Shown here: positions 1,375 through 2,544 of the stretch, in pieces
Layout: the number at the start of each line of letters is the position of its first letter
How positions within the stretch are numbered: the stretch's first letter is position 1
Origin: Candidatus Gottesmanbacteria bacterium RIFCSPHIGHO2_02_FULL_40_13
GTDB taxonomy: Bacteria > Patescibacteriota > Microgenomatia > 2-02-FULL-39-11
Assembly (NCBI GenBank): GCA_001779235.1
Contig: MFJN01000020.1
Location: forward strand, 9,852-47,889
DNA: 38,038 nt
Direction: 5' to 3'
Position numbers and translations under genes: made by a program
Notes under the pieces: model-generated
Database searches by the model: none
Told to the model about the DNA's origin: nothing
What the model saw: only the letters and a program-made list of their open reading frames with translations

Positions 1375-1998
1375 ATGCCTATGACTGATGATAAAACAAT
1401 CTTTGATCCTGAAGTGGTCATACCCAACACCAAAAGATTTTTCCGCTTCGTATTTAGTCTGCTGAAACGCAGAAAGAAACTTATAATTATAATTGTCCTA
1501 ATTATACTTGCCTTGGCTGCATTCAGGTTCTTACTCGCCAGAAGATATTCGCCAAGTACTCCCAAACCCAAAGTGGTGGCCGTCAGCGTCGATAAAAGCT
1601 TTGAATTTCCGGCACTCAGCAATCAGGGTAAGCCGACCGGCAATAAAATCCGGCTCAAAATTGCCCAGGTTGAAAAAACCAATCAGGTGATTGTGAAAGA
1701 CCAGACCTTCACGGCGAAAAACAACAAGCTTTTCCTGATTGTGAATTTGGAGATGAAAAACGACGCCACGGCCCCTCTCAATTTGTTGCCCGGCGATCTG
1801 ATCAGACTGACCTACAATAATGATGATAACAATAAATACGCTCCTGACTTGCATAATAATCTGGTATTGATATCCGCTATTTCCACCAAGCTTGACCGCG
1901 TGGGATTCGTGATACCGGATGGTGCACGCAATTTAAAATTACTGATTGGAGAACTGGAAGGGAAGAAAGAATCCATCGCGGTAGAGTTTAGTTCTTGA
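1375..1998 (+). CDS. Membrane-anchored protein with an extracytoplasmic Ig-like (DUF4352-like) domain
   Basis: Basic patch KRRKK then a single TM, then a beta-rich domain (FLIVNLEMKN...VGFVIP). Start moved to ATG 1375 (or 1381) because the TTG at 1363 lies inside the hairpin. Confidence 0.6.
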   Translation: MPMTDDKTIFDPEVVIPNTKRFFRFVFSLLKRRKKLIIIIVLIILALAAFRFLLARRYSPSTPKPKVVAVSVDKSFEFPALSNQGKPTGNKIRLKIAQVEKTNQVIVKDQTFTAKNNKLFLIVNLEMKNDATAPLNLLPGDLIRLTYNNDDNNKYAPDLHNNLVLISAISTKLDRVGFVIPDGARNLKLLIGELEGKKESIAVEFSS

Positions 1999-2023
1999 CA
2001 AGAGATTAGACAGTAGTTATATT
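1995..2023 (+). promoter_or_regulatory. sigma70-type promoter for the DUF2292-like gene
   Basis: TTGACA (1995-2000), 17 nt spacer, TATATT (2018-2023). Confidence 0.7.
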
Positions 2024-2093
2024 GCTAGATGGTATTTACTGTCGCGAAAAACTGCCCCTGAATATTTTTTTATTTCTGCCTGCTAAAACAACC

Positions 2094-2270
2094 GTGGTTG
2101 ATTACTCAACAAAAAAAATAACCAGAGACCTTGTGGAAGAACTCAAACAGGCGCTGAAAAACGTGCGCGGATGGGGCAGTGTCGAAATTTACGTACAGGA
2201 TTTCAAAGTCACTCAGATAACCGAGCGCAATATCAAAAAAACCAGTCATAACATACGGGATCTGAAATAG
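2094..2270 (+). CDS. Small DUF2292/YezD-like protein (58 aa)
   Basis: LKNVRGWGSVEIYVQDFKVTQITERNIKK fits the DUF2292/YezD pattern (helix, then [YW]GSVEI.V.D..V.QI). GTG at 2094 is the likely start because TTG 2022 overlaps the -10 box. Confidence 0.75.
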   Translation: MVDYSTKKITRDLVEELKQALKNVRGWGSVEIYVQDFKVTQITERNIKKTSHNIRDLK

Positions 2271-2376
2271 AAATTTAATTTATACTTCTCGCATTTGATT
2301 ATGCGATCAGTATATACCCTTCTAATCTGATTATTGCTTATAATTTTTCGCAAAATCAGTTAAGAATGGTATAAAT

Positions 2377-2397
2377 TACCGACCGCACACGGAGGTA
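2377..2397 (+). promoter_or_regulatory. Candidate cis-regulatory RNA hairpin, copy 1 (antiterminator-like)
   Basis: TACC-GA-CCG-CACA-CGG-A-GGTA. Its 3' strand is also the 5' arm of the terminator at 2392-2439. Confidence 0.7.
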
Positions 2398-2439
2398 GGC
2401 ATCCATACATGATATGTATGAGTTGCTTACCTCTTTTTT
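2392..2439 (+). terminator. Intrinsic terminator (attenuator) upstream of the repeat-protein operon
   Basis: GAGGTAGGCA (2392-2401) pairs with TGCTTACCTC (2424-2433), one G-U. Inner stem CATACAT/ATGTATG. Followed by T6. Confidence 0.8.
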
Positions 2440-2474
2440 ATTGACAAGATTACCGACTTTTAAGAAGCAATTTA

Positions 2475-2512
2475 CAGGATGGCTATCTTTTCCTAGGCAG
2501 ATAGCTGTCCTG
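2475..2512 (+). promoter_or_regulatory. Strong 14-bp leader hairpin without a U-tract
   Basis: CAGGATGGCTATCT / AGATAGCTGTCCTG with two G-U pairs. Confidence 0.7.
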
Positions 2513-2527
2513 GATCATTTATAAAGA

Positions 2528-2537
2528 AAGGAGGTGA
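2528..2537 (+). promoter_or_regulatory. Extended Shine-Dalgarno
   Basis: AAGGAGGTGA, 7 nt before GTG 2545. Confidence 0.85.
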
Positions 2538-2544
2538 ATATTAA

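Follow-up and report, generated by a model that had tools for sequence, protein, structure and literature searches.

A conserved hairpin-terminator switch beside DUF2292 genes of Microgenomates-type Patescibacteria, a candidate antiterminator of surface-protein operons

The DUF2292 Locus and Its Hairpin

The stretch of DNA analysed here (hereafter the window) comprises 38,038 nucleotides (nt) of contig MFJN01000020.1 of Candidatus Gottesmanbacteria, and the subject of this work is a 21-nt hairpin that lies in it between a short gene of the DUF2292 family and an operon for surface proteins, where it overlaps an intrinsic transcription terminator. An initial annotation of this DNA had described a promoter, a gene for a 58-amino acid (aa) DUF2292 protein and the hairpin behind it, and had proposed that the small protein binds the hairpin and thereby permits read-through of the terminator. 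All of the features that it described are present in the window at the places given (Table 1), and its three principal elements were confirmed, viz. the promoter-like site by a consensus match in 11 of 12 positions, the gene by its family match and the hairpin by reading of the sequence. The promoter-like site, recognised by its match to the consensus, may serve as the promoter of the DUF2292 transcript. The gene product matches Pfam DUF2292 (PF10055, YezD-like) with 26 bits (E 6.7e-6; cut-off 22), or 26.7 bits in the scan of the whole genome, and comparison with 12 orthologues gives 297 synonymous versus 102 non-synonymous codon differences, which indicates a real coding gene under purifying selection.

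The hairpin is followed by a stem-loop and a run of T residues that share part of its sequence. Both this element (2391-2434 with TTTTTT) and a second one at 7429-7447 with its T-run have the G+C-rich stem-loop and U-tract of an intrinsic terminator. The first is the minimum-free-energy fold of positions 2360-2450 (-28.2 kcal/mol, z -5.69; none of 200 shuffled sequences folds as well). Because it uses positions 2391-2397, the 3' half of the hairpin is excluded when the terminator forms, and the mutual exclusion of the two folds that had been claimed for this leader is thus upheld.

Chance is excluded as the origin of the hairpin copies in the window. The core pattern of the hairpin, with up to one mismatch, has 4 matches in the window versus 0.42 expected, a number reached by none of 100 shuffles, and its 2 exact matches are the two hairpin copies listed in Table 1. 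With R1, a covariance model of the hairpin built from relatives, the first copy scores 41.9 bits and the second 35.0 bits, the next best match on either strand of the window reaching 13.4 bits with filters off. No match to the window was found in Rfam 15 at gathering thresholds, and at E values up to 10 the region 1990-2560 yields chance-level matches to miRNA and snoRNA models. Two other exact core matches in the genome of the window (L003 and L004; four in all) appear to lie in coding sequence, lack the outer stem and were set aside as chance occurrences.

A -10-like box directly upstream of the hairpin raises the question whether, in this genome only, transcription starts at about 2382, which would leave the outer stem untranscribed and the terminator always formed. 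The box is present, and the spacer between gene and motif (about 107-110 nt) is long in this genome alone among the Gottesmanbacteria-type loci compared, 11 of 12 others having the motif 10-75 nt after the DUF2292 stop codon. However, the box has no -35 partner and is not listed by the promoter scan, the genome of the same genus shares TATAAA without the TG, a -10 box at a constant distance is missing from other relatives, and the hairpin is fully conserved here, at 41.9 bits. We therefore consider a start at this box very unlikely.

Table 1. Features of the DUF2292 locus and of the second hairpin leader (positions in the window)
Feature	Position	Strand	Characteristics
DUF4352-like protein gene	1363-1998	+	Weak Pfam DUF4352 match, E 0.0014, below cut-off; hydrophobic stretch near N terminus
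Sigma-70-type promoter-like site	1995-2023	+	TTGACA-17-TATATT; 11/12 consensus matches; -35 overlaps stop of upstream gene
DUF2292 gene	2094-2270	+	GTG 2094, stop 2268-2270, 58 aa
-10-like box	2367-2375	+	TGGTATAAA; extended -10 (TG), no -35 partner
Candidate antiterminator hairpin, first copy	2377-2397	+	TACCGACCGCACACGGAGGTA, 21 nt
Hairpin P1	2377-2380 with 2394-2397	+	Outer stem, 4 bp
Hairpin internal loop	2381-2382 opposite 2393	+	GA opposite A
Hairpin P2	2383-2385 with 2390-2392	+	CCG with CGG; terminal loop CACA
Intrinsic terminator	stem-loop 2391-2434, six T 2434-2439	+	5' arm shares 2391-2397 with hairpin
Conserved box after terminator	2448-2462	+	GATTACCGACTTTTA; mostly ATTACTGACTTTAT in relatives; resembles 5' half of hairpin (13 Gottesmanbacteria-type leaders aligned)
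Leader hairpin	2481-2506	+	GGCTATCT with AGATAGCT; carries conserved CCTAGGCAG box
Secreted Asn-rich repeat protein gene	2527-3741	+	398 aa; strong Shine-Dalgarno AAAGGAGGTGA at 2527-2537, GTG 2545
Promoter-like site of second leader	7310-7339	+	TTGACA-18-TATGAT; 11/12 consensus matches; heads leader of second copy
Second hairpin copy	7362-7382	+	GATCGACCGTAAACGGAGATC; P1 GATC with GATC, same GA/A loop and CCG/CGG stem, loop TAAA
Competing helix of second copy	7370-7416	+	GTAAACGGAGA region with TCTTCGTTTAC region; no U-tract
Separate terminator of second leader	7429-7456 (stem 7429-7447)	+	AAACCAC / GTGGTTT and T-run
LamG/LTD protein gene	7472-9097	+	3' of terminator of second leader; Pfam match

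Conservation of the Hairpin and of Its Overlap with the Terminator

The genome of the window (1.29 Mb, 85.6% complete) and 60 relatives form a set of 61 genomes that was searched for Pfam DUF2292 and for the RNA, by pattern and then with R1. A scan of one genome per species gave 80 DUF2292 loci, which partly overlap a first set of 32 loci, both sets drawing on species-representative genomes. These 80 loci are labelled Candidatus Gottesman-, Levy-, Woese-, Roizman- and Chisholmbacteria or "Patescibacteria group"; some carry the name "uncultured Gammaproteobacteria", which we take as a submission label. All of the relatives that have the motif belong to one class, the Microgenomates-type Patescibacteria.

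The secondary structure of the hairpin is strongly conserved in these relatives. When 33 instances are aligned without gaps, 98.7% of cells agree with the proposed pairs, versus 26-46% in control alignments that were slid against the structure. All four pairs of the outer stem P1 change on both sides (29 cells), with the variants UA/AU/CG/GU, GC/AU, CG/UA and CG/UG/UA, and none of 500 shuffles reaches the covariation score. The inner stem P2 (CCG/CGG), the A of the 3' bulge and the G that follows it are invariant or nearly so, and the terminal loop is variable (viz. CAAA, CACA, CCAA, TAAA, TACA and others).

The palindromic CCG-N4-CGG core, and the position of the motif near promoters in several loci, would also suit an imperfectly palindromic DNA operator for a transcription factor. 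However, all 84 R1 matches in the 80 loci lie on the strand of the gene; the GA/A loop, which is asymmetric, is conserved, the complementarity of P1 is maintained in part through G-U pairs (UG at one pair in 14 of 33 instances) that are not palindromic in DNA, the distance to the promoter varies from 5 to 132 nt, and the overlap with the terminator is conserved. The asymmetry of the loop, the occurrence of G-U pairs and the constant orientation of the motif thus argue for an RNA element, and an operator in DNA is barely credible.

The overlap itself is found nearly throughout. In 76 of 78 instances the 5' arm of the terminator, located by script, starts at alignment columns 18-25 and so within the hairpin, and in the other two (L132 and L134) the stem is present and the T-run weak; the initial annotation had likened this geometry to that of protein-dependent antiterminators, and the likeness extends to the relatives. 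The hairpin alone has a predicted energy of -6 to -9 kcal/mol versus -13 to -38 kcal/mol for 28 complete terminator folds, four of the 32 rows compared being left out of this range since their terminator folds are incomplete. The 3' strand of P1 therefore covaries with two partners, a hallmark of alternative pairings.

In 40 of 78 loci the interval from the DUF2292 stop codon to the hairpin contains a consensus promoter, which has a perfect TTGACA in 39; the Gottesmanbacteria-type loci, including that of the window, have no promoter there. From these promoters, and from those upstream of the extra copies described below, control appears to act after initiation, and the general unit is accordingly a regulator gene beside a regulated leader.

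These results bear on the possibility that nothing is switched, the hairpin being a fixed stabiliser, a processing site or an element that sets terminator efficiency, behind which the terminator is constitutive. The motif does stand close behind the DUF2292 stop codon, like part of a 3' untranslated region, in the 11 Gottesmanbacteria-type loci with a spacer of 10-75 nt, and the hairpin is weak beside its terminator. However, the same pair of structures heads transcripts with promoters of their own before strong ribosome-binding sites, where an always-active terminator would shut the operon down; one strand of the covarying P1 also belongs to the terminator; and the invariance of a 3-bp stem and a GA/A loop, despite a protein identity of down to about 43%, points to sequence-specific recognition. 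We regard an unregulated element as improbable, and hold with high confidence that the conserved hairpin-versus-terminator switch is real.

Coupling of the Motif to DUF2292 Genes

The motif and the DUF2292 gene are closely coupled. In all of the 32 loci that were read, out of 34 Pfam matches, the motif lies 10-331 nt 3' of the DUF2292 stop codon on the same strand; the remaining two are a weak match in genome G049, with the motif 1.8 kb downstream by coordinates, and a second match in genome G025. In the scan of 80 loci the motif is found within 700 nt of the stop codon in 79 (78 by regular expression and L173 by R1), and at L171 it lies 1.3 kb downstream. Neither the length nor the sequence of the spacer between gene and motif is constant, and the identity of the proteins falls to about 43%, which argues that this adjacency is not mere recent synteny.

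Presence and absence agree with the adjacency. Among the 61 genomes DUF2292 is found in 33 and the motif in 35: both are present in 33, the motif only in 2 (G005, 89% complete, and G034, 82% complete), the gene only in 0 and neither in 26. For the 40 genomes outside f1, the family of the window, the corresponding counts are 13 with both, 1 with the motif only and 26 with neither. Fisher's test gives p values of 3e-15 for the 61 genomes and 1e-9 outside f1, which are overstated as they do not account for kinship. A phylum-wide sample has DUF2292 in 4 genomes out of 151 and the motif in 2 out of 150, which also shows that chance matches of R1 are rare; gene and motif are both all but restricted to this class.

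The subfamily of the window numbers 3,095 proteins at E values up to 0.001 in a metagenome protein collection, all named just DUF2292, YezD or hypothetical, and the best 150 representatives of a profile search all fall near the query clade. A search of plasmids with tblastn for DUF2292 genes of other phyla (YezD, OscA) gave no match. The coupling is accordingly claimed for Microgenomates-type Patescibacteria and not for the phyla of YezD and OscA, so that of the earlier suggestion that similar hairpins adjoin DUF2292 genes in other bacteria the part concerning this one class stands (32 of 32 and 79 of 80 loci), and the subfamily without the motif that is considered below falls outside it. The checks that had been proposed for the motif, viz. 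adjacency, terminator overlap, covariation, co-occurrence and an Rfam search, all turned out in its favour, with a covarying outer stem, co-occurrence counts of 33/2/0/26 and no Rfam family.

Further Copies of the Hairpin

The motif is present in 2-4 copies per genome (R1 search of the 61 genomes), one of which always adjoins DUF2292. The copies away from DUF2292 lie 10-20 nt 3' of promoters and precede genes of several kinds. Some stand before a gene for a secreted protein of about 200 aa, behind which come genes for a PMT_2 glycosyltransferase, a DUF4352-like protein and DUF2292; some precede LamG/LTD proteins, assigned by Pfam match for the copy in the window. Others precede what, to our eye and from N-terminal sequences, are TasA/camelysin-type genes with a signal peptidase, or genes whose first residues look like those of nucleotide-sugar enzymes. 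Standing in front of several surface genes, the element is thus a general leader device of a cell-surface regulon.

The second copy in the window, which the initial annotation had placed at 7362, has the same core at that position and is built differently, in that its competing helix lacks a U-tract and is followed by a separate terminator. This hairpin is also present in the same-genus genome G001, and the three-part design (hairpin, helix without U-tract, separate terminator) is common to the LamG/LTD leaders of the window and of G001, G016, G013 and G018. A 9-codon leader-peptide reading frame from 7360, which would run over the second hairpin, was rejected because its start codon is not kept in relatives.

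A third copy (L175; G000:C20:8880-8916) lies about 970 nt before the start of the window and is a hairpin-terminator pair with its own promoter. It heads a gene for a secreted protein of 248 aa, behind which follows the PMT_2 gene at the start of the window, and read-through from it could also feed the DUF2292 gene.

The DUF2292 Protein

The DUF2292 protein is basic (pI 9.63), and G28, S29, E31, Q41, R45, I47 and K49 are invariant in 28 sequences. AlphaFold2 predicts a helix (7-23) and a beta-hairpin (27-35 / 38-47) with a mean pLDDT of 84.6, and the alignment and this model together place Q41, R45 and K49 as conserved polar or basic residues on the second strand. Prediction of a homodimer gives 0.55 versus 0.00 for the best control, a mark that is reached by 20 of 30 proteins solved as one-chain pairs and by 1 of 23 solved as single chains; the contacts are 100% consistent across runs, the pLDDT of the partner is at least 73, and the predicted interface consists of strand 26-37, paired antiparallel, and the helices. 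The model supports a homodimer.

No Shine-Dalgarno sequence is seen in front of the gene, either at 2080-2093 of the window or in 31 orthologous loci (GGAG within 14 nt of the start in 0 of 32); the genes downstream of the switch carry the Shine-Dalgarno sequence AAGGAGGTGA. Its lack before DUF2292 fits low-level translation of a regulator. A search for fused forms of DUF2292 among longer proteins found none, which is weak evidence.

Neighbouring Genes and Other Leader Elements

The genes on either side of DUF2292 are conserved neighbours. In 71 of 80 loci the DUF2292 gene is preceded, on its own strand, by a homologue of the DUF4352-like protein, which we read as a single-pass membrane protein from its sequence, and homologues of the secreted repeat protein lie downstream in 76 of 80. 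In the window the operon continues from the 398-aa secreted protein to proteins of 790 aa and 157 aa and a sortase (6618-7253). The C termini of the 790-aa and 157-aa proteins (6100-6199 and 6560-6669) consist of a short motif, a hydrophobic stretch and a basic tail, and read like sortase sorting signals.

A long run of genes on one strand occupies positions 9151-38038, with a CAP-domain protein, a second PMT_2 protein, a PTPS_related membrane protein and nucleotide-sugar enzymes (viz. NTP_transferase, GDP-mannose dehydratase/epimerase types and UDP-glucose dehydrogenase). Taken together, the window has the look of an island for cell-envelope and glycosylation functions.

The leader between the terminator and the Shine-Dalgarno/GTG 2545 region is 105 nt long and holds the conserved box and the leader hairpin of Table 1. 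A promoter in this leader, starting from a TTG-type -35 element directly past the T-run, was considered and judged unlikely: in the relatives checked -10-like boxes follow at a spacing of just 13-15 nt, and the window has none. A further recurrent element of these leaders is a pair of complementary short sequences, CTGCC and GGCAG: CTGCC occurs 48 times (versus 1.9 expected) in 20 leaders of extra copies (L175-L194), often as a hairpin CACCTGCCCGGTG with repeats, whereas the 75 leaders adjacent to DUF2292 (L095-L174) have GGCAG 23 times (versus 5.8 expected) and CTGCC 0 times. In the window CTGCC is found at 1341, 2052 and 2076, the last two in the 5' untranslated region of DUF2292, and GGCAG at 2496. 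These sequences may be bound by a protein, may allow RNA-RNA pairing of one leader class with the other, or may form a DNA site that is present in both orientations. Upstream of the DUF4352-like gene a promoter-like TTGACA-17-TAGTAT (1284-1312) is followed by a terminator-like hairpin (1343-1368) with a T-run, the 5' arm of which has CTGCCC; the region 1284-1374 may be another attenuator, of a kind that has no GA/A hairpin.

Comparison with Known Antitermination Systems

A close parallel in mechanism is offered by BglG, SacY, LicT and GlcT with their ribonucleic antiterminator (RAT), likewise a small hairpin with internal loops that partly overlaps an intrinsic terminator. In these systems binding of the protein stabilises the RAT and leads to read-through, the regulator gene often lies directly upstream, and the RNA-binding unit is a beta-rich dimer of about 55 aa. 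The overlap of mutually exclusive folds, seen here in 76 of 78 instances, relates the systems by mechanism and not by family: DUF2292 has neither the CAT_RBD (PF03123) nor a PRD domain, its predicted fold of a helix and a beta-hairpin differs, and the hairpin is 21 nt long versus about 29 nt for the RAT, is unrelated in sequence, has no link to the PTS and targets surface-protein genes. Searches of the 85.6% complete genome gave no match to CAT_RBD at E values up to 1 and none to CsrA.

The hut operon of Bacillus subtilis resembles the arrangement at 1995-2545 of the window, in that the regulator, HutP, is encoded first and, by binding the RNA, overcomes a terminator that precedes the structural genes. 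HutP forms hexamers from subunits of about 148 aa, binds spaced UAG triplets and needs histidine, whereas here a protein of 58 aa stands beside a single structured hairpin. The ANTAR proteins (AmiR, NasR, EutV) also stabilise small hairpins that compete with a terminator. Their RNA target consists of two tandem hairpins with hexanucleotide loops, whereas all 33 aligned instances here form one hairpin, with a loop of 4 nt and the GA/A internal loop. The genome of the window has two ANTAR proteins (G000:C62:691-849 and G000:C19:21001-21159; 77 and 76 bits), and such proteins occur in 17 of the 61 genomes, all within f1 and in 0 of 40 outside it, i.e., in 17 of 35 motif genomes, 14 motif genomes being outside f1. 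From this distribution ANTAR is not the partner of the motif.

In lambda N/boxB and HIV Tat/TAR, very small bulged or internal-loop hairpins are likewise read by short basic segments to act against termination. Lambda N and Tat modify RNA polymerase processively and involve no overlapping alternative helix, whereas the overlap with the terminator is conserved here. The device therefore works like BglG/LicT-RAT, HutP and ANTAR and is a member of none of these families, as the defining domains that were looked for, those of BglG/LicT and ANTAR, are absent or do not co-occur with the motif and the RNA differs.

Within the Pfam family of DUF2292 itself, OscA of Pseudomonas is similarly a small protein encoded directly upstream of the operon that it affects. 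Published work on OscA, which is associated with sulfur starvation and chromate resistance, gives no known function for this small protein and reports that its gene is co-transcribed as oscA-sbp (PMC2996968, PMC3596284). The protein of the window scores 18.1 bits (E 0.002) with the NCBIfam model OscA (NF033785), below its equivalog cut-off of 85, and is at most a distant relative; the target pathway is also another one.

Proposed Mechanism

We propose that by default the terminator, which is the stronger fold, would take up the 3' half of the hairpin and RNA polymerase would stop before the surface-protein genes. A trans-acting factor, recognising the invariant CCG/CGG stem together with the GA/A internal loop, would clamp the hairpin, the base of the terminator next to the U-tract could then not form, and read-through would result, as the behaviour of known attenuators suggests. 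The most likely candidate for this factor is the DUF2292 protein encoded next to the hairpin, which is basic, has 58 aa and is predicted to consist of a helix and a beta-hairpin and to form a homodimer. In the window the DUF2292 gene, the hairpin, the terminator and the surface operon would form one read-through unit from the promoter at 1995, and one DUF2292 gene would serve the 2-4 hairpin copies of a genome. The conserved membrane protein encoded upstream is a possible source of the signal, and it is speculation that this DUF4352-like protein is a sensor or partner that gates DUF2292. The analysis shows a conserved RNA switch that covaries, where it lies and how it is coupled to DUF2292 in the genomes; the assignment of DUF2292 as binder, the direction in which binding acts and the nature of the signal are inferred. 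Taken as a whole, we are inclined, by a slight degree, to accept that the hairpin is the antiterminator of a surface-operon attenuator with DUF2292 as its binder.

A number of observations weigh against this proposal. With regard to the coupling, related genomes share features by descent, which inflates the co-occurrence statistics, and ANTAR too gives a small Fisher p value over the 61 genomes. A divergent DUF2292 subfamily of about 70 aa in the same class (G117 L197 198-407; G025 L209 ~930-1140, minus strand) has no motif downstream, and the coupling thus belongs to one DUF2292 subfamily; the G117 protein, as a query of the protein collection, retrieved 11 close relatives only. With regard to the RNA, 28 of the 83 cells scored for the outermost pair of P1 are unpaired in the model-fitted alignment of the 84 matches, so that P1 often has just 3 bp, the design of the second copy offers no evident link between the hairpin and its separate terminator, and read-through from the DUF2292 gene is not general, the locus of the window being of the read-through type. 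Instead of the hairpin, DUF2292 could have CTGCC as its target, or CTGCC could be a second layer of control. With regard to the protein, DUF2292 has no fold or sequence link to any known RNA-binding protein: a profile search of the PDB gave E 0.31 at best, which is coiled-coil noise, a Foldseek search gave no match below E 2.7, and a language-model atlas gave unnamed clusters only (0.77). No covariation in specificity between protein and RNA is visible in 78 tabulated loci, both being too conserved, and the 58-aa protein has no obvious sensor domain. No RNA sequencing runs containing the DNA of the window are listed.

The chief alternative is that the switch is operated by another protein or by a small molecule or ion, as a very small riboswitch, and that DUF2292 is a conserved neighbour in the same surface-protein pathway, working for instance together with the DUF4352-like membrane protein. 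Several of the points above speak for it, viz. that binding of the hairpin by DUF2292 is something we infer, that the protein is without detectable likeness to RNA-binding folds, and that CTGCC and GGCAG point to another recognition system on the same leaders and DUF2292 might bind the CTGCC repeats. In addition, the three-gene module of the DUF4352-like protein (71 of 80), DUF2292 and the secreted protein (76 of 80) would also fit a structural or secretion role, and G005 and G034 have the motif without the gene. However, 0 of 33 DUF2292 genomes are without the motif and the two motif-only genomes are 89% and 82% complete; the gene lies upstream of the switch, like licT, glcT and hutP, where a gene regulated by the switch would lie downstream; and a conserved stem and internal loop with a variable terminal loop are typical of hairpins bound by protein, 21 nt being in our judgement very small for a ligand pocket. 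No Rfam riboswitch matches, and the distribution of ANTAR, which is the only known antiterminator family present in the genome, does not follow that of the motif. That something else operates the switch is a possibility to be taken seriously, though we doubt it.

Significance

As far as titles and the openings of abstracts show, papers on DUF2292 or yezD give no function of the protein, and those on regulatory RNA in Microgenomates or the candidate phyla radiation describe no such RNA, the one paper found on antitermination in Patescibacteria being unrelated. The switch puts a known principle into practice with a new RNA motif and, probably, a new family of RNA-binding proteins. The RNA is new in that it shows covariation and a clear switch geometry and has no match in Rfam, and the DUF2292 family, which had no mechanism, is here given a first concrete and testable proposed function. 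With 58 aa and 21 nt the system is also small enough for quick tests in vitro.

A broader reading, which we put forward tentatively and think rather doubtful, is that DUF2292 (YezD/OscA) is an unrecognised family of very small dimeric RNA-binding antiterminators, one of which would in Microgenomates switch on a surface regulon through the 21-nt GA/A hairpin in 2-4 leaders, perhaps gated by a DUF4352-like sensor. The regulon would then include sortase substrates, TasA-like fibres, LamG/LTD proteins and glycosyltransferases and, by extension, OscA would control the expression of sbp-cys in Pseudomonas in the same manner. For the Patescibacteria considered here, the surface proteins that the proposed switch would control represent the outside contact of ultra-small and probably host-attached cells.

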